From Desulfobacterales bacterium (GTDB lineage Bacteria > Desulfobacterota > Desulfobacteria > Desulfobacterales > C00003060): a stretch of 64,000 nucleotides of DNA. This document shows, piece after piece, positions 1 through 16,474 of this stretch. The stretch covers positions 6,845 through 70,844 of the forward strand of contig JAUWXF010000001.1 of the NCBI GenBank assembly GCA_030616475.1, written 5' to 3'. The notes below the pieces were generated by a model. That model was not told where the DNA came from. It did no database searches and worked only from the letters and a program-made list of their open reading frames with translations. Numbering within the stretch: position 1 is the first letter of the stretch; each line of letters begins with the position of its first letter. A program made the translations under genes and the position numbers.

Positions 1-1635
1 GTTGACGTAGCGCGGCTTTTTCCGGATTTTGACCTTGTAGTTGCCGACGAACCCCGATATCTCCACCACTTCGCTATAGGTATGCAGCTCGATATTTGGG
101 TTTTGCCCCACGGAGACCATCTTAGGGGTCCCGATGCAGGCAGCACAATCGAGGGTGGGAAAGGTCTTGTCAAACTGAAGCATATGGCCGCCAATGGTAG
201 GATCCCTTTCCACCAGATATGCCTTATGGCCGGAATCGGCTATGTCCAGCGCTGCCTGCATGCCCGCGATTCCGCCGCCCACAACCAGAACATCAGGATG
301 TACGCTCACCTCTCGGGGAGTAAAGGTTCGATGATATTTCACCCGGTGGATAGCCGCTGCGACCAATGTCTTTGCCTTCCTGGTAGCCTCGGCAGGATCC
401 TCGGTGACCCATGAAACCTGTTCGCGCACAGAGGCCATCTGTAGATGGTGAGGTTTGAGGCCTGCTCGTTGGCAGGCATCCTGAAAGATCTTTTCGTAAG
501 GTTTTGGGCTACAGGCAGCAACGACCACCCGATTCAGGCCAAGCTCTCTAATGTCCTTTTCAATCATCTCCACGCCAGGATCGTAACACATGAACTTATT
601 ATCCCTGGCCACCACCACATTCGGTTGCTTCCGGGCAAAGGCAATCACCTCCTCCACAGAGACCTTTTCCGGGATGTCAATCCCGCAATGACAGATATAG
701 AATCCTGTTTTGACGACCTCTCCAATTTCAGTCACAACGGGCCCAAGGATTTCTTTGGTGAGGGCTTCTCGTCTCTCCTTCAGGGCCCTCTCGACCCTTG
801 CCATGAACTCCTCCTCTGTGAATGGCTTGGGCAGATACTCGGCGACCCCTGTCTTCATGGCTTCGACCGCCGAGGGGATGCTTCCATATCCCGTGATGAC
901 GATAACCTCTGTTTCGGGTCTCTCACCCTTCAGCCGTTTGATCACCTCCATGCCATCCATATCTGGCAACCGGAGATCGGCTACCAATAAGTCAAAACTT
1001 TTGTGACTCAAGGTATCGATGGCGCTCTGTCCTGTCATGGCCAAATCCACGCCATAACCCTCTTCTCTGAGGACCATCCGAAGCCCCTGTGCTACACTCG
1101 ACTCATCATCCATAACGAGGACCTGGGGCCGACCGGCAGTATCATCCTCCATGGTTTCCTTTACTTGATCCATTTCCATCCCTGCATCCGCGGTCTCAAC
1201 AGGCTCAAGGATCTCTTTTGAGAGGGCTTCTCGTCTCTCCTTCATGGCCTTCTCGACCCTTGCCATGAACTCCTCCTCCGTGAAGGGCTTGGGCAGGTAG
1301 TCGGCGACCCCTGCCTTCATGGCTTCGACCGCGGAGGGGACGCTTGCATATCCCGTAATGACGATAACCCCGGTCTCGGGCCTCTCAGCCTTTATCCGTT
1401 TGATCACATCCATGCCGTCCATATCGGGCAACCGGAGATCGGCTACCAGGAGATCAAACTCTTTGTGACTCAAGGTATCGATGGCACTCTGTCCTGTCAT
1501 GGCCAAATCCACGCCATAACCCTGTTCCCGGAGGACCATCTGAAGTCCCTGTGCCACACTGGACTCATCATCCACCAGAAGGATTTGGGGCTGACCAGCG
1601 GCATCATCCCTAACGGCTTCACCTAACTGATTCAC
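1..1635 (-). CDS. REC-REC-HdrA-like fusion: two tandem receiver domains fused to the N-terminus of an HdrA/HdrL-type FAD/FeS oxidoreductase. The 3' part lies beyond the left window edge.
   Basis: Absent from the ORF track because there is no stop inside the window. My minus-strand translation is open from 1635 to 1. GTG at 1633-1635 is preceded by GGGGGA. Sequence reads ..ILLVDDESSVAQGL..DLRLPDMDGMDVIK..ITGYASV..LPKPF, then a second near-identical REC, then [43 protein letters not shown]. This is collinear with the N-terminus of the 12344..15757 product. Confidence 0.85.
   Translation of the reverse strand, partial: MNQLGEAVRDDAAGQPQILLVDDESSVAQGLQMVLREQGYGVDLAMTGQSAIDTLSHKEFDLLVADLRLPDMDGMDVIKRIKAERPETGVIVITGYASVPSAVEAMKAGVADYLPKPFTEEEFMARVEKAMKERREALSKEILEPVETADAGMEMDQVKETMEDDTAGRPQVLVMDDESSVAQGLRMVLREEGYGVDLAMTGQSAIDTLSHKSFDLLVADLRLPDMDGMEVIKRLKGERPETEVIVITGYGSIPSAVEAMKTGVAEYLPKPFTEEEFMARVERALKERREALTKEILGPVVTEIGEVVKTGFYICHCGIDIPEKVSVEEVIAFARKQPNVVVARDNKFMCYDPGVEMIEKDIRELGLNRVVVAACSPKPYEKIFQDACQRAGLKPHHLQMASVREQVSWVTEDPAEATRKAKTLVAAAIHRVKYHRTFTPREVSVHPDVLVVGGGIAGMQAALDIADSGHKAYLVERDPTIGGHMLQFDKTFPTLDCAACIGTPKMVSVGQNPNIELHTYSEVVEISGFVGNYKVKIRKKPRYVN
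745..1612 (-). repeat. Tandem duplication of the REC-coding segment (copies about 745..1150 and 1207..1612; period 462 nt = 154 codons)
   Basis: GAGGGCTTCTCGTCTCTCCTTCA starts at 760 and again at 1222. The two units stay alignable without gaps, with scattered substitutions (high identity by eye). Confidence 0.9.
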
Positions 1636-1714
1636 AGTGATTCCCCCTTTTTCAAAAAGATTGGGTTACATTTGAAAGACTTTCTCAACTGTTGAACTGT
1701 TGTGAAAGTATTAG

Positions 1715-1730
1715 AGCAAGTTTTGTTCCA
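1715..1730 (-). promoter_or_regulatory. Candidate sigma54 (-24/-12) promoter upstream of the REC-REC-HdrA gene
   Basis: The minus-strand reading is TGGAACAAAACTTGCT. GG and GC have the spacing of TGGCAC-N5-TTGCW. It lies about 80 nt upstream of GTG 1635 and downstream of an NtrC-type activator gene. Confidence 0.6.
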
Positions 1731-2143: not shown

Positions 2144-3586
2144 CTATTCGGTCTCTGCTTTGGTGGTTTTGGTCGGCAGGTGACGCTTTTTCATCAAGGC
2201 AGAAAAGTTGGGCCTCTGCATACCAACCCTCTGGGCTGCATGCGTGATGTTGCCATTGCAAGCCTTGAGGGCCTTGATAAGAAAGGCCTTTTCTATTTGC
2301 CCATAATGTTCTTCCAGGAGTTGCTTTTTAACGGCCTTGAGATCTTCCAGGGTCTCCGGGATTGAATCCCCCTTCAAGAATAGTTTCATTTGTGGCGGTT
2401 CCAACAGATCGAGGCTGTCTAGAATAACGCGATCAGCGCTGTCTAGAATAACGCGATCAGCCATGATCACCAGGCGTTCAATCACATTTTTGAGCTGACG
2501 CACGTTACCCGGCCATTCATGGTTCACCAGAATCTCCAGGGCATCGTGGGAGAATCCGTCGATCTTTTTTCCGGTCTTCCTGGAGAAATGTCTCAAAAAG
2601 TGGTAGGCGAGTTTAGGGATGTCTTTTTTTCTTTCCCGCAGCGGGGGGAGGAAAAGGGGAAATACGTTCAACCGGTAGAAGAGGTCTTCCCTGAAACTTC
2701 CCTCATCCACCATGGCCTTCAGATCCTTATTGGTGGCAGCAATGATCCTCGCATTAGTCTTTTTGAAATGACTTACACCTACAGGTTTGTACTCGTGTAC
2801 CTCCAGCACCCGTAGGAGCTTTCCCTGGATCTCCATGTTCAGGTTCGCCACATCGTCCAGAAAGAGGGTCCCGTCGTGAGCCACCTCAAAGATACCCGCT
2901 TTGTTTTGAATGGCCCCGGTGAAGGCCCCCTTGACGTGACCGAACAGTTCGCTTTCCAGGAGACCTGGAGATAGAGTGCTACAGTCCACAGCCACGAATT
3001 GCCTGGCAGCCCGCTCGCTGTGGACATGAATGGCCCTGGCGAATAGTTCCTTTCCGGTTCCACTGTCTCCATATATGAGCACCGTGCTGTCGGTAGGGGC
3101 AACCTTTCCAATCTGATCGAATATACTGAGGATCTTGGGGGTCTCTCCCACGATGTTGCTAAAGCCGAACCGATCAACGAGCTCTCTTCGGAGGAAAAGG
3201 TTTTCCTCCACCAGCCGTTTTTTCTCCATAGCCCTTTCCACGGCCAGCACGAGTTCATCGTCGGAGAAGGGCTTAGCGATGTAATCGACAGCCCCCGACT
3301 TCATGGCCTCTACCGCATTCTTGACAGTGGAATAACCGGTCATGACAATAACATACACGCCCCGTTTTTCCTTTCGGAGAGTCCGCAGGATCTCCATGCC
3401 GTCCAGATCAGGAAGCTTCATATCCAGCAGGATCAATTCGTATTCACCCTCCCTGATCGCTTCAAGACCGGCTCTGCCGTTCATTCGAAAGTCCACGACC
3501 GAATAGCCTCCCTCCGAAAGCGCCAGTCGGCATCCCTCGCACATGACTTGTTCATCGTCAATGATCAGAATTTTCACGGAATTCAT
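2144..3586 (-). CDS. Sigma54-dependent response regulator (NtrC family: REC + AAA+ + Fis-type HTH)
   Basis: 480-aa ORF with REC (ILIIDDE..LLDMKLPDLDG..KPF), Walker A GDSGTGKE, the GAFTGA loop (GHVKGAFTGA) and a C-terminal HTH ITHAAQRVGMQRPNF. Confidence 0.95.
   Translation of the reverse strand: MNSVKILIIDDEQVMCEGCRLALSEGGYSVVDFRMNGRAGLEAIREGEYELILLDMKLPDLDGMEILRTLRKEKRGVYVIVMTGYSTVKNAVEAMKSGAVDYIAKPFSDDELVLAVERAMEKKRLVEENLFLRRELVDRFGFSNIVGETPKILSIFDQIGKVAPTDSTVLIYGDSGTGKELFARAIHVHSERAARQFVAVDCSTLSPGLLESELFGHVKGAFTGAIQNKAGIFEVAHDGTLFLDDVANLNMEIQGKLLRVLEVHEYKPVGVSHFKKTNARIIAATNKDLKAMVDEGSFREDLFYRLNVFPLFLPPLRERKKDIPKLAYHFLRHFSRKTGKKIDGFSHDALEILVNHEWPGNVRQLKNVIERLVIMADRVILDSADRVILDSLDLLEPPQMKLFLKGDSIPETLEDLKAVKKQLLEEHYGQIEKAFLIKALKACNGNITHAAQRVGMQRPNFSALMKKRHLPTKTTKAETE
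2414..2461 (-). repeat. Perfect 24-nt tandem duplication inside the NtrC-type gene (duplicates ADRVILDS)
   Basis: GCTGTCTAGAATAACGCGATCAGC occurs at 2414..2437 and again at 2438..2461. The protein reads MADRVILDSADRVILDSLDLL. Confidence 0.95.
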
Positions 3587-3603: not shown

Positions 3604-4815
3604 TTACTGTCTGAGAGGGATGTCAACGGTAAAGCGGGTTCCATGCCCCGGTTCGCTCCGGACCTGGATATTCCCCTCGTGTTTCTGGACGATTGCATAA
3701 CTCACGGACAGCCCCAGGCCGGTCCCGTTCGTCTTGGTGGAGAAGAAGGGTTCAAAGATTGTGGGCATATCATCTTGTGCGATACCACATCCGGTGTCCT
3801 TAATCTCGATCCTCTGGCTGTCTTGGTCCGAACTCATACGGCTCCGGATGCTGATCACTCCATTTTCTTGAATCGCTTCCACGGCGTTGATCAAAAGGTT
3901 CACAAAAACCTGCTGCAACTGGTTGGGGTCAAGCAGAGTGTCCGGCATCTTGCTATATAAATCCTTCTCCACCTGTATGTGATGGAGGCGAAACTCGTTA
4001 TCCAAAACTCTCACAGCCTTGTTGATAATGTGATTGATGTTGGCCAAAACCACTACTGGCTCCCTATCCCTGGAGAATTCCAAAAGATCCTGGATAATGA
4101 CTTTACACCGTTGGGTCTCGCGAATGATGACGTCCAGGCCTTCTGCAAGTGGCCCCTCATCCGGGACTTTTTTGCGCATATTTGTGCTGAAAAGCAGGAT
4201 ACCACCCAGAGGGTTGTTGATCTCATGAGCAATCCCTGCCGCCATTCGGCACAGGGCTGAAAGCTTTTCAGTATGGGAGGATAGCTGTTGGTATTGGGCC
4301 CGCTGCTCTTCGATCAAGCGGGCCTTATCGATCGCGCAGGCACATTGCTCACCTACGGCCACTACGAAATCGAGTTCCTCGCTGGAAAACTCCCTTGGTT
4401 CCTCGAAACAGACTCGAATGATCCCGATGATATCATCTTTGAGGGTGAGGGGGACATCCAATACCATACGGATCCCTTCTTCCAATGCCTCATCAGGGTA
4501 CATAATACGAGGGTCTGCCAGAATATCATCTATGACAATGACCTTGTTTTCCCGGCATAAATCCGTGATGATTTTATGGCTGAAGACGGGTCCTTTGGCA
4601 AGGTATTTCTCGCTCAATCCATATGCAGCGAACAGTTCCAACTTGTCTGTTGCGAGGTTGAGGATCCGGAGGATGGCGCCTTTAGCGCCGAGGACTTTGG
4701 TGGACTTCCAGACCACCAGCTCCATTACTTCCGTCAAATCCGTGCTGGAATGCACCACTTTGCTGATATCCCGAAAGATAGCGTAATATGTCTTGAAATC
4801 CATCGAAGAGTTCAT
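3604..4815 (-). CDS. Sensor histidine kinase with an N-terminal GAF-like domain
   Basis: 403-aa ORF with H-box AAGIAHEINNPLGG and N/G boxes NLLINAVEA, DTGCGI, GTGLGLS. It ends 18 nt upstream of the NtrC-type gene on the same strand. Confidence 0.9.
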   Translation of the reverse strand: MNSSMDFKTYYAIFRDISKVVHSSTDLTEVMELVVWKSTKVLGAKGAILRILNLATDKLELFAAYGLSEKYLAKGPVFSHKIITDLCRENKVIVIDDILADPRIMYPDEALEEGIRMVLDVPLTLKDDIIGIIRVCFEEPREFSSEELDFVVAVGEQCACAIDKARLIEEQRAQYQQLSSHTEKLSALCRMAAGIAHEINNPLGGILLFSTNMRKKVPDEGPLAEGLDVIIRETQRCKVIIQDLLEFSRDREPVVVLANINHIINKAVRVLDNEFRLHHIQVEKDLYSKMPDTLLDPNQLQQVFVNLLINAVEAIQENGVISIRSRMSSDQDSQRIEIKDTGCGIAQDDMPTIFEPFFSTKTNGTGLGLSVSYAIVQKHEGNIQVRSEPGHGTRFTVDIPLRQ

Positions 4816-5327: not shown

Positions 5328-6203
5328 CTATTTCTCCGTCTTCAGTTTGGCCCGAAACGAGTCGGTGAAGGCAAGATTGAGGTTCAGTTTCAGCTCTTTC
5401 TCAGACAGACCAAGTGCAAGCCCCATGAGCTGAGGAAGATACAGGATAGAGATATCCAACGCCTCACCGCGCGTCTTCGAGACCTTGGCTTGATAACCTT
5501 CCAGGTTGATCTGGCACATGGGACATACTGTGACGATGCAGTCGGCCCCCCTGGCTGCCGCAAGGATGCCGGTCACACGCTCTATGGCAACATTTTTCTT
5601 GGTTGACATCAACGCCGCACCACAACACTTGGCCCCCACGGTCCAGGGATGGACTTCAGCACCCAGGGCCTCGATCAAAGGTTCCATGGATTGGGGTTGC
5701 TCCGGATCATCAAAGGAGCAGTAAGGGCGCAGGGCCTGACAGCCGTAGTAAGGGGCTACTCGCACACCCGAGAGCTTTCGCTTCACCCGGGCATCGATAT
5801 CCTCAGGATCAAAATCAGTGGCCACCACGTCCAGGAGATGGCGTGCCTTGATCCCGCCTTTGTAGCTCAAACCTTCTTCACTCAGAACCTCATTGATCTT
5901 ATTTAGGAGTTCCGGGTCCTGCTTGACGTGTTCTCCAACCCTTGCAAGATTTAAATAGCAGGCGCTGCACGGAATCAAGAAATCGGCCCCAACTTCCATC
6001 CGCTCTCCCAGGGCCAGATTGCGAGCAGCCAGGACGATGGCGAGCAGATAGCTGGTCGCCTCGGCAGCGCTGGCCCCACAGCACGTCCAGTCTTCTAACT
6101 CCACCAATTCTGAACCGAGCGCCTGCATCGCGGCCCGAGTCGACACGTTATATTCGAGGGCCGTGCCCTGCAGGGAACAGCCTGAATAGTAAATGTACTT
6201 CAT
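5328..6203 (-). CDS. HdrB-like subunit (two CCG domains)
   Basis: 291-aa ORF with DWTCCGAS and GAKCCGAA CCG motifs plus PCSACY and VCPMCQ. It overlaps the preceding hdrC-like stop by 4 nt. Confidence 0.9.
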   Translation of the reverse strand: MKYIYYSGCSLQGTALEYNVSTRAAMQALGSELVELEDWTCCGASAAEATSYLLAIVLAARNLALGERMEVGADFLIPCSACYLNLARVGEHVKQDPELLNKINEVLSEEGLSYKGGIKARHLLDVVATDFDPEDIDARVKRKLSGVRVAPYYGCQALRPYCSFDDPEQPQSMEPLIEALGAEVHPWTVGAKCCGAALMSTKKNVAIERVTGILAAARGADCIVTVCPMCQINLEGYQAKVSKTRGEALDISILYLPQLMGLALGLSEKELKLNLNLAFTDSFRAKLKTEK

Positions 6204-6778
6204 CGCTTCGCCTCCAGCTCCTCCACCTTGCGAAACATCGCATCAAGCCTCCCTTTTCCAAAGAACTTCGGCATCTCAAGGGAGACCTTGCCTTTGCCCA
6301 TGAGCTTCAGCCCCAGAGAAGCAAACTTGAAGGGGAGAAAAGGGTTTTTCATGGCGAGGAAATAGCGGTTCATGAACTCCATCTCCCTCACCCGGCCATA
6401 GCGCCGCACAGTATCCATGAAACTCTTATAGAATTGAATGCTGCTTTTGTACATCTCTATGCCTTCGGCTGCGGCTATCCTCTTAAGAGCACCAATGGTC
6501 TCCGTCAGAGGAAGGCCACGCGGACAGCGGAGCGTACAGAAATAGCACGCTGAGCAAAGGTAAAAGGTTTTGCTGTTGAAGATCTCGTCTTTCTGTCCTA
6601 GTTGGGCCAACCGCCACAACTGCCTGGGCGTATAGTCCATGGCAGAAGCATTGGGACAAGAGCCACTACAGGTACCGCACTGCATACAGGCCTGAATCTT
6701 TTCCTGGATAGATGCCATGGCATCCGATGCAGCCGATTCATAAGCCTGGCTGGTTAGATCTAGCTGCTGGGCGCTCAT
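6200..6778 (-). CDS. HdrC-like subunit (2x[4Fe-4S])
   Basis: 192-aa ORF with CMQCGTCSGSCP and CSACYFCTLRCP motifs, immediately upstream of hdrB-like. Confidence 0.9.
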   Translation of the reverse strand: MSAQQLDLTSQAYESAASDAMASIQEKIQACMQCGTCSGSCPNASAMDYTPRQLWRLAQLGQKDEIFNSKTFYLCSACYFCTLRCPRGLPLTETIGALKRIAAAEGIEMYKSSIQFYKSFMDTVRRYGRVREMEFMNRYFLAMKNPFLPFKFASLGLKLMGKGKVSLEMPKFFGKGRLDAMFRKVEELEAKR

Positions 6779-7062: not shown

Positions 7063-7066
7063 TCAT

Positions 7067-10000
7067 CTAAAAAGCCCCTTCCAGGGCGTCATCAATGACC
7101 TCAAACATCTGCTGGTCCCGATACCCCAGAAGCACCGAGGCGCTGTTGGGACACACTGCCGCACAAGAACCGCACCCCTGGCACATAAGCGTGTCCACCA
7201 GGATCTTCTCCTGCTCCTCATCATGCCATCTGGCCCCATAGGGACAGGCAGCAATGCACTGTTCGCACAGGGAGCAAAGACTGTGACGCACTTCGGCCAC
7301 GATGCCGCCTGCGGCCACCTGTTCGCTGCTCAGGATCCTGAGGGCACGCTGGGCGGCCGCCTCGGCCATGGCAATGGACTCTTTTATGGAACGGGGCGAA
7401 TGTGCCATGCCGCACGTAAAGATCCCTTCCTTCAGGAAATCCACCGGACGCCATTTAGATTCGGCTTCCTGGAAAAAGCCGTCCTCGTCCACCTCAACCC
7501 CGAATATCTCTGCGAGCTTTTTGTGGTCGCCCGGGATGACTCCAGTGCTGGGCACAAGTGCGAGCTTTTTCTGGTCGCCAGCAACGATCCCTGTGCTGAG
7601 CACAAGCAGGTCTGGCCGCAGCACAATTTCCCGGCCAAGGATTGGATCAATGGCGGAAATGCGTGGGCGGCCATTTTCAACCGTTACCTGGGGCTTTTCG
7701 CTCACTTCGTACTGTATAAAGAGCACCCCGGCCTGACGGGCCCTGGTATAATAAGCCTCCATGAACCCATAGGCCATGATGTCTCTGTAAAAGATGTAAA
7801 CCTGGATCTCAGGGTTTTGTTCCTTGAGGTAGAGGGCATTTTTCAGGGCCGAGGCACAGCAGATCCGGCTACAGTAATTGCGTGGTTCTTCCCTGGAGTC
7901 CACGCACTGGATCATTGCCACCACACCAAGGCCGGCAGGGGCCAGGGTTCCATCTGCAAGCTTCTGCTCAAATTCGTGCTGGGTGACGATCGCCTCGCTT
8001 TGTCCATAAGAGTAAGATTCGGTCTTGGCTTCATGAGCGCCGGTAGCCAGCACCGCCACGCCGTGCTCCAGGGTTTCGCCTGCCCCCTCCGCCTTCTCAA
8101 TGGTCGTGATAAAACGGCCGACTCGCCCCTCGGAGTGGATCACCCGCGCCTTCTTATAAACATGGATCTGCGGATGCTTTTCCACCCCGGAGATTGTCTT
8201 CTCCAGAAGCTCCTGGGGTGAATCCCCTTCAAGAGTCCGATGCAACAAGCGGACATTGCCTCCCAATTCATCTGCCTGTTCCACCAGGCCCACCTCAAAG
8301 CCGTGGTCGGCAATGGCAAGGGCTGCGGTCATCCCCGCAATACCGCCTCCCACAACCAGCGCCTTCTGGATGACCGGAGTAGTGGGTACTGGCAATGGGT
8401 CCTTGCCCTTCAGCTTGCCAACGCCCATGGCTATCGTGGCACGAATATCCCGACCTGCCTGCTCCTTATCCGCATCGTGGCCGGGAAATACCGCGGTTCG
8501 GATGTCCACCACATCCATGAGCGCCGGGTGAAGCCCAACCGCCCCACCCAATTCCTGAAGTTTTTTCGTATACACGTAGGGCATACAAGCGCCAATCAGA
8601 ACTCGATTCGCCTTGGTGTCCTGCAATTTCTCTTGAAGTTCATTCCAGCCCTCCTGGGTACAGACGCGCTCGATGCGCTGAACTGGACCCACGGAGTTAA
8701 GATCTGTGAGGCTTGCTTCCAGTGCTTCTATATTGACTACTTCTGTTAGGGCATCTCCGCAGGTACAAAGCGCTACAAAGACCTGCGGCGGTTCCCGTGA
8801 AACATCGCGAAACTCTGGTTGCCCCGGAGGCACCTCCGCCAGGCTGCCCCCCTTGGCATGAATCAGGCTGGATGCTGTTAGGGCGGCTGAACTTGCCTGG
8901 ATAACCGACTCGGAGATATCCTTTAGGCCGGAGAAGGACCCCCCAACAAGGATTCCTTCCTGGGCGGTGCGGCTTAAGGAAAAGCTTTCGGGGTGGCAGA
9001 AACCCCATGGATTCAGATCAAGTCCGGCGATTTCCGCCAAGGTCTCGGTCCCTTTAGAGGGCCTCTGGCCCGCTGCAAGTACCACCAGGTCGAAAACCTC
9101 TTCATGTAGCTCGCCGGCCACATCCGCATACCGAATTGCCAGGTCGCCATCCGTGCCTGCGTCTACAACCGAATGGACCCGGCATCTTTGAAAGCGGACC
9201 CCTTGTTCCTTTTCAGCCTGATCCCTGTAACGCTGGAAGTTCTTCCCAAAGGTGCGCATGTCCATATAAAAGATGGTCGTTTCCGCTTCACCCCCGCTAC
9301 GCTCCTTTGCCAGCAACGCTTCTTTGATAGCGAACATGCAGCAGGCAGAGGAGCAGAAGTCGGCATTGTGCTGCGGATCGCGTGACCCTACACACTGGAG
9401 CCAGGCCACCCTGCGGACCTCTTTGCCGTCGCTTGGCCGCAAGAGCCTTCCCTGATTTGGCCCGCTGCCGCTGACCCCCCGCTCGAACTCAACACTGGTA
9501 ACAACATTGGGAAGCACACCGTATCCGTAAGTGTTCGTGCCCGTGGCCGGGTCAAAGGAGGCAAACCCCGCAGCAAGAACCACTGCCCCAACTTCAATTT
9601 GCCGCTCTCCGGCGCGCTCAATTTTCTGGTGAAGTTCAACCACCAACGGAACCAGGGTATCCGGGTCAAAAGGCTTCATCAAGTACTCAAGGGCGCCGAT
9701 CTTCATCGCTTCCACGGCCGTCTCCACCGTGGCATAGGCGGTCATCATTACGACCGGGAGATCAGGGCGCATCTCTTTGGTCCGTTTTAGGACCTCCACA
9801 CCATCAATGCCCGGCATCTTGATGTCCAGCAGCACCAGATTGAAGGCCTCTTCCCGCAGCTTGTCCAGGGTTTCAGTTCCCGATTCGGCAGTATCCACCC
9901 GGAAGCCCTCATCCTCCAACCACTCTTTGAGTGAATCACGAACAACCAGTTCATCGTCCACGACCAGAATACGAAATGCCCGGCGCACCTCCACACCGAA

Positions 10001-10543
10001 GTCAATGGCATTGGTGGGACAGACCTTTTCACATTCTCCGCACAGGGTGCAAGAGGCCATGTCCACCACATAAGTGTTTGGAATATTATGGGGTACCGGC
10101 AGGTAAATCGCCTTTCTCCTGGTCAGACCGGCATTAAACTCATCAGGGGCCTCCGCCGGACAGACCCGGGAACACTCCCCGCAGCCGATACAACGCTCGG
10201 GATCCACCATGGTCGGTTTCTGACGCAGGGTGACCAGGAATTTTCCCGGCTCTCCTTCCATTGCCGACAGTTCTGTTGAAAGTAAGATATCAATGTTCTC
10301 GTGAAAGAGGCCCTTACGGAGACAATATTGTGAGGATCTATCGCGCTCCACCAGGGGAAGCATCCTGCACATTCCGCAGTGGTCGCTTGGAAACTGGTAA
10401 TCGAGTTGCATCAGGGTACCGCCCAGATTCGGGGCCTTGTCGATGAGTGTTACATGGTAGCCCACTTCTGCCAGGTCAAGAGCTGAACGGATGCCGCTGA
10501 TTCCGGCTCCCACCACCAAAGCTGAGCCAATCTTTTTCTTCAT
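7067..10543 (-). CDS. Giant double HdrA-like flavoprotein (QmoA-like + QmoB-like halves) with an internal receiver (REC) domain
   Basis: 1158-aa ORF. The N-terminal half has GAGISG, DHCGMC and two CxxCxxCxxxCP motifs. A complete REC (ILVVDDE..LLDIKMPGIDG..MTAY..KPF, about nt 9614..9976) is inserted. The C-terminal half has [19 protein letters not shown] and two terminal 4Fe-4S motifs. Confidence 0.9.
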   Translation of the reverse strand: MKKKIGSALVVGAGISGIRSALDLAEVGYHVTLIDKAPNLGGTLMQLDYQFPSDHCGMCRMLPLVERDRSSQYCLRKGLFHENIDILLSTELSAMEGEPGKFLVTLRQKPTMVDPERCIGCGECSRVCPAEAPDEFNAGLTRRKAIYLPVPHNIPNTYVVDMASCTLCGECEKVCPTNAIDFGVEVRRAFRILVVDDELVVRDSLKEWLEDEGFRVDTAESGTETLDKLREEAFNLVLLDIKMPGIDGVEVLKRTKEMRPDLPVVMMTAYATVETAVEAMKIGALEYLMKPFDPDTLVPLVVELHQKIERAGERQIEVGAVVLAAGFASFDPATGTNTYGYGVLPNVVTSVEFERGVSGSGPNQGRLLRPSDGKEVRRVAWLQCVGSRDPQHNADFCSSACCMFAIKEALLAKERSGGEAETTIFYMDMRTFGKNFQRYRDQAEKEQGVRFQRCRVHSVVDAGTDGDLAIRYADVAGELHEEVFDLVVLAAGQRPSKGTETLAEIAGLDLNPWGFCHPESFSLSRTAQEGILVGGSFSGLKDISESVIQASSAALTASSLIHAKGGSLAEVPPGQPEFRDVSREPPQVFVALCTCGDALTEVVNIEALEASLTDLNSVGPVQRIERVCTQEGWNELQEKLQDTKANRVLIGACMPYVYTKKLQELGGAVGLHPALMDVVDIRTAVFPGHDADKEQAGRDIRATIAMGVGKLKGKDPLPVPTTPVIQKALVVGGGIAGMTAALAIADHGFEVGLVEQADELGGNVRLLHRTLEGDSPQELLEKTISGVEKHPQIHVYKKARVIHSEGRVGRFITTIEKAEGAGETLEHGVAVLATGAHEAKTESYSYGQSEAIVTQHEFEQKLADGTLAPAGLGVVAMIQCVDSREEPRNYCSRICCASALKNALYLKEQNPEIQVYIFYRDIMAYGFMEAYYTRARQAGVLFIQYEVSEKPQVTVENGRPRISAIDPILGREIVLRPDLLVLSTGIVAGDQKKLALVPSTGVIPGDHKKLAEIFGVEVDEDGFFQEAESKWRPVDFLKEGIFTCGMAHSPRSIKESIAMAEAAAQRALRILSSEQVAAGGIVAEVRHSLCSLCEQCIAACPYGARWHDEEQEKILVDTLMCQGCGSCAAVCPNSASVLLGYRDQQMFEVIDDALEGAF
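7511..7606 (-). repeat. Imperfect 48-nt tandem duplication inside the giant hdrA-like gene
   Basis: TGCGAGCTTTTTGTGGTCGCCCGGGATGACTCCAGTGCTGGGCACAAG (7511..7558) compares with TGCGAGCTTTTTCTGGTCGCCAGCAACGATCCCTGTGCTGAGCACAAG (7559..7606). The protein reads STGIVAGDQKKLALVPSTGVIPGDHKKLAEIF. Confidence 0.85.
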
Positions 10544-10566: not shown

Positions 10567-11712
10567 CTATTCCTTGCCGCCAGTGAGCTCTAGAAACTCT
10601 CCTTCGCGAAAGATGGAAAGGGGCGGATCGTCCTCCACACTGCGCCCAGGCTCGTATTCAAAGGCTTTTTGGGTGTGACTCGAAACGGTTCGGAAAAGCT
10701 GCATCACGGGAATATTGTTGGGACACGCATTGGAGCACTGGCCGCAGCCGATACAGGCCGTGCTCATGTGGGCCAAACGGGTAATATGGAAAAAGACCGT
10801 GTCAGTAGGCATCTTGATGATACCTTTCCGCTTGGCCCAACGCAGATACTGCGTGGGTTCGTGGTCGAACACATCGGTGACAAAGACACACTCCTTGCAG
10901 TAGCAAACGGGGCAGGCCACCCGGCAGTTGAAACAGTTAACGCAGTTGGCCAGATAGCTCGTGAGCTTCTCAATGTTTGAAGTGGCCTCAGTGGTTTCCG
11001 CAAACATCTTGTCACGGTACTCGACGCGCTGGGCTACCAGGCTGTCGATTGCCTTTTTGCGGCCGTCCGGCTCCTTGGCCTCCGGCAGTTTCAGCTTTTC
11101 CAGCAGGGCCTCACCCTGGGGTGTGTTGGCCTTGACAAGCATTTGCTGATTGATGTCCACGCCCACCAGACCGATGAGCACATCAGCATTTTCCGGAACT
11201 GGATACTCGCAGGCCTTGCATGCCGGGGAGAGATCAAAATCCTCGACGGCCGTGCTTTTTCCTGCCAGGACATTCTGGCAAAACCGGAGTGTGGCCTCGG
11301 CGCCGTCATCCCCGACAAAACGGCGATAATCGACATTGGTGTAAGCTCCCAGGCAGTCTATACCCACCAGTACGACTTCCTCCATGCGCCCCTGTTTGAG
11401 CTTCACCAGTTCAATGAAGGCCCGAATCTCGCAGGGCCTGAGAACGACAGCCACACTCCCTCCCAGTGGTTTCCCGGTGAGTCTGGAAACTACCTTGGCT
11501 GCGTTCATTGGAAAGACAGGCGCCAGGGGATCAGTGCCGTTCAGCTTTTCCGGGTCGGTCACCAGGGTAGGCATGACCACGTCTTTCATTGGAAGATGCT
11601 GTGGCACCAGGATGGCGCTTATCTCTTCTTGTTCAAGAAGTGTCTTGAAAAACCCTTGCAACGAGTTGAGCGGGTTCTGCTCTTTCACCTCAATCTTCGC
11701 TATCTTCGCCAT
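10567..11712 (-). CDS. FeS protein with a C-terminal 2x[4Fe-4S] domain; the N-terminal part resembles FrhB/FdhB-type subunits (assignment tentative)
   Basis: 381-aa ORF with CVNCFNCRVACPVCYC and CIGCGQCSNACP motifs, lying between mvhD and the giant hdrA-like gene. The family call is from memory only. Confidence 0.75.
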   Translation of the reverse strand: MAKIAKIEVKEQNPLNSLQGFFKTLLEQEEISAILVPQHLPMKDVVMPTLVTDPEKLNGTDPLAPVFPMNAAKVVSRLTGKPLGGSVAVVLRPCEIRAFIELVKLKQGRMEEVVLVGIDCLGAYTNVDYRRFVGDDGAEATLRFCQNVLAGKSTAVEDFDLSPACKACEYPVPENADVLIGLVGVDINQQMLVKANTPQGEALLEKLKLPEAKEPDGRKKAIDSLVAQRVEYRDKMFAETTEATSNIEKLTSYLANCVNCFNCRVACPVCYCKECVFVTDVFDHEPTQYLRWAKRKGIIKMPTDTVFFHITRLAHMSTACIGCGQCSNACPNNIPVMQLFRTVSSHTQKAFEYEPGRSVEDDPPLSIFREGEFLELTGGKE

Positions 11713-11732: not shown

Positions 11733-12155
11733 CTATAATACCATCTGATTCCTCACTTCATTTGGGCCCAGGGCCTTGAGCTCGGGCACCATCTCTGTAA
11801 TGGTTTCGGCAAATTGAATACCATCACTGGCACCGATCCAGGTAAGCTTCACCCGCTGTTCGTCAAAGCCGAACCTGGGCAGGAGCTCTTTCAGCAACTT
11901 GACGCGCCTGCGGGCCTTGAGGTTACCGTTCATGTAATGGCAGTCGCCTATGTGACATCCGCTGATAAGTACGGCGTCTGCGCCTTCCAGCAGGGCCTTG
12001 ATGACGTACTTGGGATCGACCATCCCGGTGCACATTACCCGGATCAATCGCACGTTGGGGGGATAGGACAACCTGGAGGTCCCTGCCAGGTCAGCCGCCG
12101 TATACGTGCACCAGTTGCACACAAAAGCAATGATGGTTGGTTGGTAGTCTTCCAT
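11733..12155 (-). CDS. mvhD: MvhD-like [2Fe-2S] protein (all-Cys version)
   Basis: 140-aa ORF with the motifs IIAFVCNWCTYTAADLAG, RVMCTG and ISGCHIGDCHY. Confidence 0.9.
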   Translation of the reverse strand: MEDYQPTIIAFVCNWCTYTAADLAGTSRLSYPPNVRLIRVMCTGMVDPKYVIKALLEGADAVLISGCHIGDCHYMNGNLKARRRVKLLKELLPRFGFDEQRVKLTWIGASDGIQFAETITEMVPELKALGPNEVRNQMVL

Positions 12156-12246: not shown

Positions 12247-12346
12247 TGGAATAATGGAATGTTGGAATATTGGAATATTGGAAACAAAAGCCGCAATCAG
12301 TTGTTCCCGATGCTACATTCCGCATTCCGCATTCCGCATTCCATTA
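12247..12346. repeat. Stutter-hairpin element (GGAATATTGG arm / CATTCCG arm) at the 3' end of the hdrL-like gene
   Basis: The arms are TGGAATAATGGAATGTTGGAATATTGGAATATTGGAAAC and CATTCCGCATTCCGCATTCCGCATTCCATTA. In the minus (mRNA) sense the mismatches become G-U pairs. Confidence 0.8.
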
Positions 12347-15300
12347 TATACCCACCGCACTGAGCGCATCCATGATGCCGTCGAGCTCTGCAAAGATTTG
12401 CTTCTCTTTGAAATGTCTGACCTGCGCAGCGCCGCTCGGGCAGAATCCGGCACAGCTCCCGCATCCCTTACAAAGGGCTTCGTTTACTACCGAGACTCCT
12501 CTTCGTGCATCAAACTCAATGGCGGTGTAAGGACACAGCCCGATGCAGGTCTGGCAGCCAGCGCATATATTCGGGTCTATCCAGGAAATGGTAGACGGAA
12601 TCTCCACACGTCCCAGCGTAGCCATGGCAAGGGCCTTGGCGGCTGCCCCGGATGCCTGGGCAACCGCGTCCGGAATATCTTTGGGTCCCTGGCAGGCGCC
12701 GGCCAAAAATACTCCGTCCGTAGCAGTATTCAGCGGTCCCAGCTTGGGGTGTTCCTCCAGGAAAAACCCATCTGCTCCCTGGCTGACCCCAAAAATCCTG
12801 CCTACATCAAGAGCATCCTTGCGGGCCTGCATGGCAACGCACAGGACCGCCATATCCACAGGCACTCTTAAACGCTTGCCCAGAAGGGTGTCTTCGCTGA
12901 TCATGATGAGCTTGTCTTCCTCTTCCGGTGTGATGGCCTGGTCGGTGATCTCGGCCACTTTGCCTCTGATGAAGGTGGTACCTTCTTCCTGACACCTCAG
13001 GTAAAACTCCTCGTAGCCTTTGCCAAAGCAGCGCATGTCAATGTAAAAATCATAGACTGGTGTTTCGTGTCCGACCTTTTCCTTGATCAGGTGGGTGTAC
13101 TTGATTGCATACATGCAGCAGACCCGTGAGCAGTATTCGTGGTAGTGCACATCCCGGCTGCCGATGCAGTGGACAATGGCCACGCTCTCCGGGGGCTTCG
13201 TAAGTTCTCCATTTTCGTCTCTGATAAGGATCTTGCCGCCGGTGGGCCCTGTGGCATTGCTGAGGCGCTCGAACTCGAGGCTGGTATAGACATTGGGATA
13301 GGTGCCGTAGCCAAACTGTTTCATGGGGGTGGGATCCAGGATGTCGTATCCGGTCGTCAGGATGATGCTGCCAACCTTGACCTCCATCTCTTCTTCCTTC
13401 ATGGTGTGGTCAACTGCCTTTGCCTCGCAGGCCTGCACGCACTCCATACATTCGCAGCAGATGCCGCAGTTGAGGCAGCGGTTTGCCTCCCGTTGTGCAT
13501 CTTCTTCTGAAAAGCCAAGCTCCACCTCGTCAAAGGAAGACGCCGCTTCCTTGGCGTCCCGATGCTGCGCCTTTGCCCGGGCTTCTGTGGCAAGGCCCTC
13601 AGGGATTTCTTTCCAATCCTGGCCCGGGGGTTCCTGGGCTGCCAACTCCTCGGCATAGAGGTCAAGATCCTCGCCATTGACGTAGCGGTGAATAGCCTCG
13701 ACCGCCTTGTGACCGTCTGCCACTGCCTCGATCACCGTTGCCGGGCCGGTGACCGCATCGCCCGCAGCAAACACATGGGGAATGGACGTCTGCATGGTGT
13801 GGCGGTTCACCACCAGAGTGCTCCGGCCGGTAACCTCCAAAGCGGCGCCATCTATGGCCCAGCCTACGTCTGTCTGCTGGCCAATGGCGGGAATGACCCC
13901 ATCGCAGTCGATCACAAACTCGGAGCCCTCCACAGGCACTGGTCGCCGCCTGCCGCTCTCATCAGGTGGTCCGAGTTCGGTGCGCACGCACTCGATGCCA
14001 GTGGCCTTTCCATCCGCACCAAGGATGCGCACAGGCGCGGTCAGGTAATGAATCTTGACACCTTCGGCCAGGGCGCCCTCGATCTCTTCGGCGAAAGCGG
14101 GCATCTCTTTTCGGCTGCGTCGATAGACCATACTCACCTCCTCACAGCCAAGCCGCTTGGCAACCCGGGCAGCATCAACGGCCACATTTCCGCCGCCAAT
14201 GATTACCGCGCGCCTGCCGGGCCGCTCCCGGCTACCCAAATTCACCTCCCTGAGAAAATCGACTGCATTCACCACACCCTCGAACTCATCCTCACCAGGG
14301 ACATTCGATTTCGTCCCGAGGTGCGCGCCAATCGCGAGGAAAACTGCGTTGAAGCCCTGCTTTTTGAGATCATCCAGCGTGAAGTCCGTACCTAAACGTT
14401 TGCCGGTTTCAGTCTCGATTCCCAGTCGGAGAATGTAATTTATCTCCCGGTCCAATACCTCCGGGGGCAGCCGGTAATCCGGGATACCCACCCGGAGCAT
14501 ACCGCCCAGCACCGGAAGCGCTTCAAAGATTGTCACCTGGTAGCCCTTAAGACGGAGATAGTAGGCCACAGTCAGCCCGGCCGGACCCGAACCAACCACA
14601 GCCACCTTTTCTGTGCGGTCCTCGATTTCCGGCAAAGGGAGATCATCAAGATTCACCTGGTCAGAGGCAAAACGCTTCAAATCCCTGATGGCAATCGCTT
14701 CATCCACATCCATCCTTCGGCATTTAGATTCGCACGGATGCGGGCAGACCCGTCCCAGGACCCCGGGCAAAGGGAGGCGCTCCATGATCAACTGGATAGC
14801 CTCCTTGTATTTGCCCTGGCCAATGAGCTGCACATAGCCCTGAATATTGATGCCTGCCGGACAGGTGGTCACGCAGGGGGCCCGGTCTTTCTTATCAACA
14901 CAGAAGGTGATCGGCACTGCCTGCGGAAAGGATCTGTAGATGGCCTTTCTCATCGCCAGACCCTCATCCCATTTGCTGGGCATTTCAACAGGACAGACCT
15001 TGGCGCATTCACCGCAGCCCGTGCAGACACCTTCTGTTACATACCGGGGCTTCCTGCGAATCTTCACAGTGAAGTTGCCAATATATCCCGATACCTCCTT
15101 AACCTCGCTATACGAGAGCAGCTCGACATTCGGATCCTGTGCCACAGAAACCATCTTTGGCGTTCCGATACAGGCAGCGCAGTCAAGTGTGGGAAAGGTC
15201 TTATCGAACTGGAGCATATGCCCGCCGATGGTGGTTTCTCTTTCCACCAGGTATACCTTATGGCCAGAGGCGCCTATGTCGAGCGATGCCTGCATGCCAG

Positions 15301-15757
15301 CAATGCCGCCACCAACCACCATGATATCAGGATGGACACCCACCTCACGGGTGGCAAGACGCTCATGATAGTTGACCCGGTTGATGGCCGCTGCCACCAA
15401 TGTTTTTGCCTTCCTGGTCGCCTCGTCTTCATCCAGGGTTACCCAGGAAACCTGTTCGCGCACAGAAGCCATCTGGAAAAGGTAAGGGTTGAGCCCGGCC
15501 CGCTGACAGGCGCCCTGAAAGGTCTTTTCATGGAGTCTTGGCGAACAGGAGGCCACCACGACCCTGTCCAGGCCAAATTCCCTGATGTCGCTTTCAATCA
15601 TCTCCTGCCCTGGATCTGAACACATGAACTTGTAGTCTCGGGCCACCACCACATTCCTCAGAGCCCTGGCAAATTCCGCCACCTCTTCCACGCGGACCCT
15701 ATAGGCAATGTTGATGCCGCAATGGCAGATATAAAATCCGATTTTCGTAGCCATCAT
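12344..15757 (-). CDS. Large HdrA-like flavoprotein with an inserted NfnB/GltD-like NAD(P)H module (HdrL-type architecture)
   Basis: 1137-aa ORF. It reads [36 protein letters not shown]. The insertion carries CPHPCESKC, VVGSGPAGL, GGGNVAVD and DESGRRRP. The HdrA C-terminal part follows (CIGSRD and two terminal 4Fe-4S motifs). Confidence 0.9.
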   Translation of the reverse strand: MMATKIGFYICHCGINIAYRVRVEEVAEFARALRNVVVARDYKFMCSDPGQEMIESDIREFGLDRVVVASCSPRLHEKTFQGACQRAGLNPYLFQMASVREQVSWVTLDEDEATRKAKTLVAAAINRVNYHERLATREVGVHPDIMVVGGGIAGMQASLDIGASGHKVYLVERETTIGGHMLQFDKTFPTLDCAACIGTPKMVSVAQDPNVELLSYSEVKEVSGYIGNFTVKIRRKPRYVTEGVCTGCGECAKVCPVEMPSKWDEGLAMRKAIYRSFPQAVPITFCVDKKDRAPCVTTCPAGINIQGYVQLIGQGKYKEAIQLIMERLPLPGVLGRVCPHPCESKCRRMDVDEAIAIRDLKRFASDQVNLDDLPLPEIEDRTEKVAVVGSGPAGLTVAYYLRLKGYQVTIFEALPVLGGMLRVGIPDYRLPPEVLDREINYILRLGIETETGKRLGTDFTLDDLKKQGFNAVFLAIGAHLGTKSNVPGEDEFEGVVNAVDFLREVNLGSRERPGRRAVIIGGGNVAVDAARVAKRLGCEEVSMVYRRSRKEMPAFAEEIEGALAEGVKIHYLTAPVRILGADGKATGIECVRTELGPPDESGRRRPVPVEGSEFVIDCDGVIPAIGQQTDVGWAIDGAALEVTGRSTLVVNRHTMQTSIPHVFAAGDAVTGPATVIEAVADGHKAVEAIHRYVNGEDLDLYAEELAAQEPPGQDWKEIPEGLATEARAKAQHRDAKEAASSFDEVELGFSEEDAQREANRCLNCGICCECMECVQACEAKAVDHTMKEEEMEVKVGSIILTTGYDILDPTPMKQFGYGTYPNVYTSLEFERLSNATGPTGGKILIRDENGELTKPPESVAIVHCIGSRDVHYHEYCSRVCCMYAIKYTHLIKEKVGHETPVYDFYIDMRCFGKGYEEFYLRCQEEGTTFIRGKVAEITDQAITPEEEDKLIMISEDTLLGKRLRVPVDMAVLCVAMQARKDALDVGRIFGVSQGADGFFLEEHPKLGPLNTATDGVFLAGACQGPKDIPDAVAQASGAAAKALAMATLGRVEIPSTISWIDPNICAGCQTCIGLCPYTAIEFDARRGVSVVNEALCKGCGSCAGFCPSGAAQVRHFKEKQIFAELDGIMDALSAVGI

Positions 15758-15765
15758 TCAACCTC

Positions 15766-15801
15766 ACGTTTCGGAATTTCTACAACCGATTGAGATCATA
15801 G
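15766..15801 (-). promoter_or_regulatory. Motif A copy, 9 nt upstream of the hdrL-like start
   Basis: ACGTTTCGGAATTTCTACAACCGATTGAGATCATAG. The core GTTGTAGAAATTCCGAAAC (minus sense) is a 19-bp imperfect palindrome, GTT-N3-GAA-N-TTC-N3-AAC. Confidence 0.45.
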
Positions 15802-15821
15802 TTTTTCTCTGGTATCTATTT

Positions 15822-15882
15822 ATGCCATCGCCACGCACAGTACACAGCTTTTATGCCAATATTCATGGCAATGGCGGGCAGG
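15822..15882. repeat. Family-6 hairpin (GCCATCGCC ... GGCAATGGCGGGCAGG)
   Basis: Related to CCTGCCCGCCATTGCC...GGCGATGGCAGGCGGG at 45868..45933 and to 56302..56367. Confidence 0.6.
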
Positions 15883-16062
15883 TAAAACCATCACTCTCTC
15901 CGAGGCGTAGGCTCTCCGAGCCGGAGGCCGGTACTCCAATTGGGCCGAAGCCCCTAAGTTCAATTACCACCACCAGAGGTAGTGGGTTGTATTGTTAATC
16001 CTTAAATCCGCCTGAGGCGGACTGGTCTAAGTGAGCTAAAGTGCCTAAAGTCCCTAAAATGC

Positions 16063-16368
16063 CTAAAGTTTAAGTGTTAACCTGCAACAGCAGACAAGGT
16101 TACTTGAATAGAATTGCCAGGTTGTATGATCTAATTGCGGTTCAGGCAGGGACTGGCCCGGACGGATATTTAGCATCTTCTGATAATGCAAGAAATTCTT
16201 CTTGGCTATGGCCGAGAGTATGACTGGAATGTGCTTCAATTGACCGTCGCTTTTGAGTTGCCGGCACATCTCAATGCCGCCGCCTTTTTTGGCAACATCA
16301 CGTCCGGAATGATGATGGGCAATGTCGAATATCCACCTGAATATGCGACATTTTTTGCCTTTGAACAA
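16063..16368 (-). pseudogene. Possible receiver-domain remnant
   Basis: GGGIEMCRQLKSDGQLKHIPVILSAIAKK resembles the central part of REC domains. The N-terminal acidic pocket and the C-terminal KPF are missing, and the ORF is isolated among repeats. Confidence 0.3.
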
Positions 16369-16474
16369 TGTGAGTATGAAGTGGCTTTCTTATACTAGTC
16401 TGGCTAAAATGTCAACAAAAAAAAAGAATTCCCCTCCCCTAGGGGCAATGCTGTTGAATTAAGGAGTTGGCTGG

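Follow-up and report, generated by a model that had tools for sequence, protein, structure and literature searches.

Our analysis revealed a receiver (REC) domain in the interior of an HdrA-like flavoprotein (heterodisulfide reductase subunit A) of 1158 amino acids (aa). The protein is encoded on a stretch of 64,000 nucleotides from a Desulfobacterales bacterium (GenBank assembly GCA_030616475.1, contig JAUWXF010000001.1, positions 6,845 to 70,844), which is referred to as the window and from whose first letter all positions are counted. Judged from its sequence and predicted fold, the inserted segment is a genuine and intact receiver domain that should be competent for phosphorylation, and the arrangement suggests that a kinase signal may act directly on an energy-conserving redox enzyme. 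The features that define the insertion are as follows.

7067..10543, minus strand: gene of the 1158-aa type II (two-module) HdrA-like flavoprotein with internal REC domain (open reading frame (ORF), Pfam, HdrA alignment, Foldseek)
9614..9976, minus strand: REC domain, aa 190-310 (PF00072, PDB receiver matches, (beta-alpha)5 fold in the AlphaFold2 model)
9824..9826, minus strand: codon of D240, the predicted phospho-acceptor aspartate (alignment conservation)
9989..10213, minus strand: inserted ferredoxin domain, aa 111-185 (Pfam Fer4 and Fer4_7 at 117-181; 5ODC residues 239-313)
8855..9613, minus strand: module A, rest of the flavin adenine dinucleotide (FAD) domain, aa 311-563 (aligns to 5ODC residues 318-514)

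Translation of 9614..9976 on the minus strand yields residues 190-310 without stop codons (FRILVVDDELVVRDSLKEWLEDEGFRVDTAESGTETLDKLREEAFNLVLLDIKMPGIDGVEVLKRTKEMRPDLPVVMMTAYATVETAVEAMKIGALEYLMKPFDPDTLVPLVVELHQKIER), with FRILVVDDE, LLDIKMPG, VVMMTAYA, YLMKPFDPD and HQKIER as landmarks along the segment; a plus-strand reading was ruled out, since stop codons interrupt the frame. Pfam identifies Response_reg (PF00072) at aa 192-298, with 1-107 of the 111 profile positions covered (E 9.5e-33; 113 bits, gathering score 30). When the segment alone was compared with PDB sequences, receivers were recovered at E 1e-25 to 1e-22, namely the CheY-like 3CRN, NtrC1 (1ZY2), FixJ (5XSO) and Spo0F, and the best NCBIfam receiver matches were regulators of the NtrC family (ZraR, AtoC, NtrC) and FixJ. 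An AlphaFold2 model of the whole chain was built from a 52-sequence family alignment (mean predicted local distance difference test score (pLDDT) 76; predicted template modelling score (pTM) 0.75). Residues 191-308 adopt a textbook (beta-alpha)5 fold in it at pLDDT 81-90, with beta1 at 191-195, alpha1 at 199-211, beta2 at 215-219, alpha2 at 222-231, beta3 at 236-240, alpha3 at 248-258, beta4 at 264-268, alpha4 at 270-282, beta5 at 286-289 and alpha5 at 294-308. The complete REC domain of the original prediction is thereby recovered both by the Pfam match and by the canonical fold of the model.

The residues of receiver phospho-chemistry are all in place. The acidic pair after beta1 is D196/D197 (VVDDE), the predicted phospho-acceptor D240 ends beta3 (LLDIKMP), and the switch residues are represented by T268 at the end of beta4, Y287 in beta5 and K290 and P291 in the beta5-alpha5 loop. 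Among the 51 REC-bearing members of the 52-sequence alignment, D196, D240, Y287, K290, P291 and F292 are each found in every sequence, T268 in 50 and D197 in 49, so that the conservation claimed at the outset for VVDDE, LLDIKMP, MTAY and KPF extends across the family. In species-level orthologues (42-76% identity) D196, D197, D240, T268, Y287 and K290 are all invariant. D240 is an aspartate in 31 of the 32 aligned species-level sequences, the remaining one having a gap; this alignment holds one mis-picked ORF and two truncated sequences, which were set aside for conservation scoring (29 left). The domain has lost neither the acceptor aspartate nor any other catalytic residue, as aspartate-less or pseudo-receivers have. 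One relative of the REC-bearing HdrA carries a partly degraded receiver (ILVVDKDEE.., FLDVRMSG.., VVLTATDE.., with T268 replaced), which suggests that the phospho-site may occasionally be relaxed within the family.

The insertion adds about 129 residues at one point of HdrA, between residues 313 and 318 of the HdrA of Methanothermococcus thermolithotrophicus (5ODC). On its N-terminal side it directly adjoins the inserted ferredoxin domain at the second of the two 4Fe-4S motifs (..CEKVCPTNAIDF), and on its C-terminal side comes ..EVGAVVLAAGF. At this point the chain passes from the inserted ferredoxin domain back into the thioredoxin-reductase-like FAD fold. The alignment to 5ODC thus places the REC domain where it had been proposed from the single sequence. 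Three REC-less sequences show a single clean gap at this site: the two other double HdrAs of the window (37672..40695 and 41845..45126; 41-42% identical to the REC-bearing HdrA) and the natural orthologue P0085 (80% identical; junction ..AIDFGVSERSAERQIEVGAV..). The REC domain is an insertion and no normal part of HdrA. In the AlphaFold2 model a short helix (184-189) leads into beta1 of the REC domain, and about 4 residues lie between alpha5 (294-308) and the next strand of the flavin domain (313-318). In 29 species-level orthologues the junctions do not vary in length, and across the species-level alignment they are free of insertions and deletions, save for 2 additional residues in one sequence. 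The layout differs from that of classical enzymatic response regulators, which have an N-terminal REC domain on one linker, as HdrA sequence flanks aa 190-310 on both sides.

Host protein, conservation and distribution

The original prediction had described the host as a double HdrA of 1158 aa, and alignment to 5ODC_A is in agreement with this. The protein matches HdrA in four stretches (8-185 to 146-313, 315-512 to 318-514, 584-755 to 2-173, and 1011-1151 to 505-647), the last two of which return to HdrA positions 2-173 and 505-647 after the first module; the same four-stretch match was found with HdrA of 8RVU and 7BKB. The match to 5ODC has E 3e-122 by sequence, and a Foldseek search with the model returned HdrA chains as its first matches (8RVU, 8RVY, 5ODC, 7BKB; E 1e-37 to 2e-38), which confirms the HdrA fold only. 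The remaining domains are listed below.

10214..10543, minus strand: module A, first part of the thioredoxin-reductase-like FAD domain, aa 1-110 (aligns from 5ODC residue 146)
8384..8794, minus strand: HdrA N-terminal-type iron-sulfur (FeS) domain between the flavin modules, aa 584-720 (aligns to 5ODC residues 2-140)
7319..8368, minus strand: module B, thioredoxin-reductase-like FAD domain, aa 726-1075 (Pfam Pyr_redox_2, NAD_binding_8 from aa 728)
7070..7306, minus strand: C-terminal ferredoxin domain, aa 1080-1158, with two 4Fe-4S motifs (Fer4_10, Fer4_21 at 1083-1133; 5ODC residues 570-647)

The hallmarks of HdrA-type proteins, an FAD domain with a GxGxxG motif and a cysteine-ligated [4Fe-4S] cluster with hdrB and hdrC alongside, are all found. 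In module A the GxGxxG motif lies at aa 12-17, and G12, G14, G17, C56 and C59 are invariant, as are E354, K407 and the cluster ligands C384/C397/C401/C402 in the remainder of the FAD domain. The inserted ferredoxin domain has two CxxCxxCxxxC motifs with invariant cysteines (C118/121/124/128 and C165/168/171/175) and is the only such domain in the protein, as module B is devoid of its cysteine motifs. Module B has its Rossmann motif at aa 732-737 and invariant C880/C891/C895/C896; in the 32-sequence alignment its E859 and K901 are conserved in 26 and 29 sequences, respectively. K409 and E356 of M. thermolithotrophicus HdrA mark bifurcating HdrAs (PMC12054007), and by counting along the 5ODC alignment this pair was assigned to E354/K407 and E859/K901, so that both flavin modules keep the Glu/Lys pair as sequence markers of bifurcation only. 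With two thioredoxin-reductase domains, an A6-type N-terminal part and an A12-type C-terminal part, the protein corresponds to type II HdrA, a class defined on archaea, and its alignment indicates that the host is a fused HdrA pseudo-dimer following the type II plan.

The NCBIfam models for the CoB-CoM (coenzyme B-coenzyme M) HdrA, NF041778, NF041891 and NF040770, gave 554, 540 and 701 bits and stayed below their cut-offs of 1400, 1300 and 1100. With 554 bits against a cut-off of 1400 the host protein is HdrA-like and not an orthologue of the methanogen enzyme. No NCBIfam model reached its cut-off for the REC-in-HdrA architecture. The disulfide substrate of the host is probably not CoM-S-S-CoB; DsrC-type acceptors have been discussed for sulfate reducers (PMC2702500, PMC10553843). 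Within module B there is a 48-bp in-frame tandem duplication at 7511..7606 with two copies at 81% match (STGIVAGDQKKLAL / STGVIPGDHKKLAE), because of which the protein has 1158 aa here compared with about 1142 in most relatives. It is absent from the three aligned REC-less sequences, and AlphaFold2 confidence is below 50 at residues 990-1005.

A protein 100% identical to the REC-bearing HdrA was found in an independent Logan assembly. In a word-indexed search, clusters (90% level) with 66-80% identity numbered more than 120, and a length of 1138-1163 aa and PF00072 are common to almost all of them. Their source labels vary between 'heterodisulfide reductase subunit A', 'response regulator' and 'FAD-dependent oxidoreductase', and automatic annotation of these proteins is currently inconsistent. 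The base composition of the REC segment is close to that of the rest of the gene (GC 0.547 and 0.569; third-position GC 0.659 and 0.632). Mean column conservation is 0.757 in the REC domain, 0.66-0.67 in the flavin domains and 0.48 in the N-terminal FeS domain, and alpha4 together with the beta5-alpha5 loop of the REC domain is 92% conserved. As read from the alignments, the REC domain is under strong purifying selection on its phospho-chemistry and on the lengths of its junctions.

When one genome per GTDB species was scanned for the pattern of the complete ferredoxin-REC-flavin junction, at least 33 species were found to have it. Among the matches listed, all are metagenome-assembled genomes (MAGs) of Desulfobacterales type (Desulfobacteraceae, Desulfosarcinaceae, Desulfococcaceae), further MAG labels being Desulfobacula, Desulfotignum, Desulfosarcina and one Syntrophobacterales, and none is a cultured type strain. 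HMMER, run without filters against 1.84 billion representatives clustered at 50% identity, gave 2543 proteins at E <= 1e-30, and 52 of the best 150 matches were classified by alignment. Eight of these clusters align straight through the REC domain; the majority of the rest, about 1000-1050 aa long, are type II HdrAs that lack it. The third group consists of type II relatives with 1200-1530 aa, in which 270-570 residues have been inserted within the inserted-ferredoxin region (e.g. P0156, P0161, P0168), and the inserted ferredoxin domain looks like a recurrent site of domain acquisition in these alignments.

In a neighbour-joining tree of 987 shared core columns, all 12 REC-bearing sequences fall in one clade of 15, inside which the REC-less P0085, P0123 and P0124 are nested. 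The simplest history would be one gain of the REC domain in the type II HdrA lineage of Desulfobacterales followed by losses; at a bootstrap value of 42 of 100 for the clade, we draw this only weakly. P0123 is encoded in a matching hdrL-mvhD-frhB-like-hdrA-hdrC operon, and the gene of P0085 is followed by hdrC and hdrB. The occurrence of REC-less members in the same clade and operon implies that the core enzyme works without the REC domain, which is therefore an accessory and not part of the catalytic geometry. Its accessory status fits regulation, without saying what is regulated.

Operon and signalling neighbourhood

The REC-bearing hdrA gene is part of an operon that starts with hdrL and ends with hdrB and is surrounded by two-component genes. 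The neighbouring genes are the following.

12344..15757, minus strand: hdrL (type III HdrA with GltD-like NAD(P)H-binding insertion), first gene of the operon, no REC domain (Fer4_20, Pyr_redox_2 at 292-682, NCBIfam)
11733..12155, minus strand: mvhD (FlpD) (PF02662, E 5e-53; syntenic)
10567..11712, minus strand: gene of an FrhB/FdhB-like FeS flavoprotein, immediately upstream of the REC-bearing hdrA (FrhB_FdhB_C and Fer4_8; syntenic)
6200..6778, minus strand: hdrC-like gene (Fer4_17/Fer4_8; NCBIfam HdrC models below cut-off; syntenic in nearly all related loci)
5328..6203, minus strand: hdrB-like gene with two CCG domains, last gene of the operon (Pfam CCG twice; synteny)
3604..4815, minus strand: GAF-HisKA-HATPase histidine kinase, nearest candidate phosphodonor (Pfam)
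2144..3586, minus strand: NtrC-type sigma-54 response regulator paired with the GAF kinase (REC, Sigma54_activat, HTH_8)
17151-18215: PAS kinase upstream of the operon
18225-19547: double-REC protein upstream of the operon
19924-21369: second sigma-54 regulator upstream of the operon
21359-22798: another PAS kinase upstream of the operon

The order hdrL-mvhD-frhB-like-hdrA-hdrC-hdrB is kept in nearly all of the at least 33 related loci. In most of them hdrB is directly followed by a kinase of about 770 aa and then by a REC-HATPase hybrid or a PAS-sigma54 activator, and throughout the family the hdr operon is embedded in two-component genes. The kinase of about 770 aa has a periplasmic Mcp40H-20-like sensor, HAMP, two PAS, HisKA and HATPase domains (L013:14628-16940, L025:14449-16767, L033:10272-12563); in the window genome the GAF kinase stands in its position after hdrB instead. 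Terminator-like hairpins lie 3' of hdrB at 5124-5111 and 5035-5015, and the GAF kinase gene has a sigma-70-like promoter of its own (5007->4978, 11 of 12 matches). Three kinases and six further REC domains are encoded within 22 kb in the window. No match to a molybdopterin oxidoreductase was found with Pfam among the genes scanned from 2144 to 19547.

REC similarity did not point to a cognate kinase: between the HdrA REC domain and the six others of the window identity is 37-43% in each case, and none of them is clearly its nearest relative. Its alpha1 (VVRDSLKEWL) differs from that of all six, and R202 and S204 within it are 100% conserved in the family. Alpha1 is the usual kinase-docking helix of receivers, and a distinct, family-conserved alpha1 fits a dedicated partner.

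Before hdrL, in 15758..17150, a search for a sigma-54 promoter (TGGCACN5TTGC, one mismatch allowed) found no site, and over the whole window the pattern was found 7 times with 5.4 expected, which is not above chance. The region 15758..17150 upstream of hdrL is rich in repeats, with a 29-bp unit twice in tandem (16992-17049) and an inverted copy at 16906-16937, a 41-bp motif right before the hdrL start (15766-15806) that recurs at 16838-16878 (78%), and a 55-bp repeat pair at 15875 and 16551. It also holds a 101-aa ORF (16063..16368, minus strand) with a receiver-like fragment (..GIEMCRQLKSDGQLKHIPVILSAIAKK..), possibly a gene remnant.

A second topology of REC-HdrA fusion had been announced for the window, and it is present in ORF 1..1665 (minus strand, cut by the window start), whose product has REC domains at aa 28-137 and 181-288 in its N-terminal part and continues from aa 319 with an HdrA N-terminal FeS domain and an FAD Rossmann fold. 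The 1137-aa neighbour 12344..15757 was considered as the other fusion and rejected, being of the HdrL type without a REC domain. Upstream of the REC-REC-HdrA gene, directly 3' of the NtrC-type regulator gene, there is a sigma-54-like element, TGGAACAAAACTTGC, as a candidate promoter (1716..1730). The REC-REC-HdrA has only 9 relatives at E <= 1e-150, several of which end near 580 aa, possibly at an in-frame TGA. The REC-less type II paralogues on the minus strand have one in-frame TGA each (37672..40695 at 40516..40518; 41845..45126 at 44932..44934), in both cases at the second cysteine of a CxxC motif (CTM*, CAM*) that corresponds to C59 of the REC-bearing HdrA. These positions are consistent with selenocysteine, which has been reported for HdrAs of Desulfobacterium autotrophicum (PMC2702500). 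The product of 41845..45126 further contains, at aa 245-320 approximately, a Lys/Glu-rich, probably helical insertion of about 74 residues, at a different site of flavin module A and without counterpart in the other sequences.

A possible phosphorylation switch and its alternatives

We give about an even chance to a phosphorylation switch that acts on the HdrA enzyme itself, most likely at the low-potential ferredoxin port or on the packing of the flavin modules. In receivers, a phosphoryl group on the beta3 aspartate shifts the beta4 threonine and the aromatic residue of beta5, and the alpha4-beta5-alpha5 side is remodelled. In the case of HdrA a histidine kinase, a candidate being one of those flanking these operons, would phosphorylate D240, and the T268/Y287 switch would then alter the alpha4-beta5-alpha5 side, from which alpha5 runs into the flavin fold via the linker of about 4 residues. 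As a result the inserted ferredoxin domain might be shifted or become more or less accessible, or the two flavin modules might pack differently, and the HdrL-MvhD-FrhB-HdrA-HdrBC complex would be switched or tuned post-translationally, most likely in its ferredoxin coupling. We infer the phosphorylation of the REC domain, the kinase responsible and the gating of the ferredoxin branch as the output. It had been proposed that the internal position implies conformational control of flavin/FeS geometry rather than tethering; this is plausible, and in its support both junctions are short and constant in length and conservation is higher in the REC domain than in the flavin domains.

In the solved Hdr structures, the low-potential branch runs from the bifurcating FAD through the inserted ferredoxin domain to ferredoxin or polyferredoxin (PMC13518236, PMC12054007), and a GltD domain inserted in the inserted-ferredoxin region of HdrL/type III HdrA has been proposed to re-purpose the ferredoxin site or to block the access of ferredoxin (PMC12054007). 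More specifically, and at clearly less than even chance, the REC domain at the base of the only inserted ferredoxin domain may open or close the low-potential branch of a bifurcating or confurcating HdrA on a kinase signal, a possibility that we put forward tentatively.

Several observations weigh against a switch of this kind. Alpha5 (0.48) and the exit linker (0.32) are the least conserved parts of the REC domain, which is the opposite of what would be predicted for a precisely tuned lever. Two-component genes also precede the gene of the REC-less P0124, which is likewise flanked by kinase genes, so that adjacency may reflect only transcriptional control of the operon and cannot by itself assign a kinase to the HdrA REC domain. 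The nearest kinase/regulator pair has its own promoter, and the sigma-54-like site lies downstream of it, before the REC-REC-HdrA gene; the GAF kinase and NtrC-type regulator may serve that gene instead. Finally, the near-invariant alpha4 motif SAVEAMKxGAxDY.KPF is common to all seven REC domains of the window, which makes it a trait of the NtrC-like REC subfamily, and the conservation of alpha4 was dropped as an argument for an HdrA-specific interface.

A rather unlikely alternative is phosphorylation-dependent assembly, in which the REC domain would dimerise via alpha4-beta5-alpha5, as in receivers of the NtrC, FixJ and OmpR types, and would join two HdrA chains or recruit or release HdrL, the FrhB-like protein, MvhD or ferredoxin, as opposed to a movement within the chain. 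The closeness of the REC domain to NtrC-family and FixJ receivers and the 92% conservation of alpha4 and the beta5-alpha5 loop would agree with this, although the alpha4 motif is generic to the subfamily. Solved Hdr complexes do form large super-assemblies (PMC13518236), and type II HdrA is already a fused pseudo-dimer, so that higher-order assembly would need a new interface. On the other hand, the short linkers at both ends of the REC domain restrict the rotation that a symmetric REC-REC dimer needs.

We consider it distinctly unlikely that signalling runs in reverse or that the HdrA REC domain is a phosphate sink. In that case it would compete with the sigma-54 regulators, the redox state of the FeS clusters and flavins would set its rate of phosphorylation or dephosphorylation, and the enzyme would report its own load to the transcriptional circuit. 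We know of no precedent for a redox-controlled half-life of a REC domain. The excess of seven REC domains over three kinases within 22 kb, including the stand-alone double REC and REC-REC-HdrA, and the REC-HATPase hybrids of related loci, suggestive of multi-step relays, speak in favour of it, as do the kinases that flank the REC-less P0124, according to which the circuit exists independently of the REC insertion. Yet alpha1 of the HdrA REC domain is unlike that of the sigma-54 regulators of the window, which argues against one shared kinase, and a sink does not require indel-free junctions at a specific site of an enzyme.

REC folds are reported, in one study, to serve without phosphorylation, and the family member with the degraded site (VVDKDE..., T268 replaced) might be taken as a hint that the domain is a structural pseudo-receiver, never phosphorylated and kept as a spacer or docking surface. 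This is very improbable for the family, whose catalytic residues are kept in 49-51 of 51 members and in orthologues down to 42% identity, as is expected only if the phospho-chemistry is used; the existence of REC-less orthologues also shows that the domain is not structurally needed. An assembly chimera or frame artefact that fused a response-regulator gene to hdrA, including the misassembly at the insertion borders for which we looked, is excluded by the continuous frame, the identical independent assembly, the uniform base composition and junctions shared by more than 120 clusters and at least 33 species.

A phosphorylation switch in HdrA would be of interest beyond this family. The energy conservation of methanogens, acetogens and sulfate reducers depends centrally on HdrA-type enzymes and their flavin-based electron bifurcation, and in the searchable literature we found its control discussed only as gene expression and as intrinsic conformational gating in structures. 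The hypothesis offered here is that kinase signalling tunes the partition of electrons between ferredoxin and the disulfide acceptor. If this is true, Desulfobacterales could switch an energy-coupling module on, off or between directions within seconds and without new protein synthesis, and an electron-bifurcating enzyme would, within the searchable literature, be described for the first time as being under post-translational control by signalling. REC-REC-HdrA, as the second fusion in the window, would then make control by REC domains a general strategy of the organism. Since members of the family are frequent in Desulfobacterales of marine and freshwater habitats, a group with a major share in carbon mineralisation, such regulation would be ecologically relevant. 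It would also add to the outputs of response regulators an FeS flavoenzyme with several cofactors and an unusual, internal topology. The gating hypothesis is genetically and biochemically tractable, with REC-less orthologues in the same operon as natural controls.

Comparison with known systems

In CheB, PleD/WspR, RpfG and RssB-type adaptors a phosphorylatable N-terminal REC domain on one flexible linker controls the attached enzyme or the binding of a partner. The REC-bearing HdrA resembles CheB/PleD-type regulators in that its REC domain is covalently joined to an enzyme rather than to a DNA-binding output. It differs from them in that the domain is internal and held at both ends, and in that the output is an enzyme of energy metabolism, an FeS flavoprotein with several cofactors. 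We found no description of a REC-in-HdrA fusion in the searchable literature on HdrA or electron bifurcation together with receiver domains, and the word 'regulator' is absent from a survey of HdrA domain diversity from 2025 (PMC12054007).

The fold and the cofactor-binding motifs are shared with methanogen HdrA as known from HdrABC-MvhAGD, Fdh-Hdr-Fmd and Hdr-Vhu-Fwd (5ODC, 7BKB, 8RVU), whereas the methanogen proteins are single-module homodimers without a REC domain. Closer in architecture is the type II HdrA defined in methane-metabolising archaea, whose gene clusters with those of MvhD, FdhB and a non-catalytic molybdopterin-oxidoreductase homologue (PMC12054007). Both have two FAD modules per chain, each with an E356/K409-equivalent pair, an N-terminal module with the inserted ferredoxin domain, and a C-terminal module with N-terminal-type FeS and C-terminal ferredoxin domains, and in both cases mvhD and an FdhB/FrhB-like gene belong to the gene cluster. 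The protein described here differs in being bacterial and REC-bearing and in occurring with hdrL and hdrCB, with no molybdopterin-oxidoreductase match among the neighbours scanned. With regard to gene order, the operon agrees with locus VIII of D. autotrophicum HRM2, in which a tandem hdrL-hdrA4, mvhD, an FdhB-like gene and hdrCB follow in the same order and near which genes for a kinase and a 'CheY-like regulator' are drawn; a receiver inside HdrA4 is not described there (PMC2702500).

The nearest parallel to the insertion itself is type III HdrA/HdrL, of which an example is encoded in the same operon, upstream of the REC-bearing hdrA (12344..15757). There, too, a foreign domain has entered the same accessory domain of HdrA. 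In HdrL, however, GltD is a catalytic NAD(P)H module placed between the cluster motifs, whereas the REC domain is a signalling module that follows the second motif.

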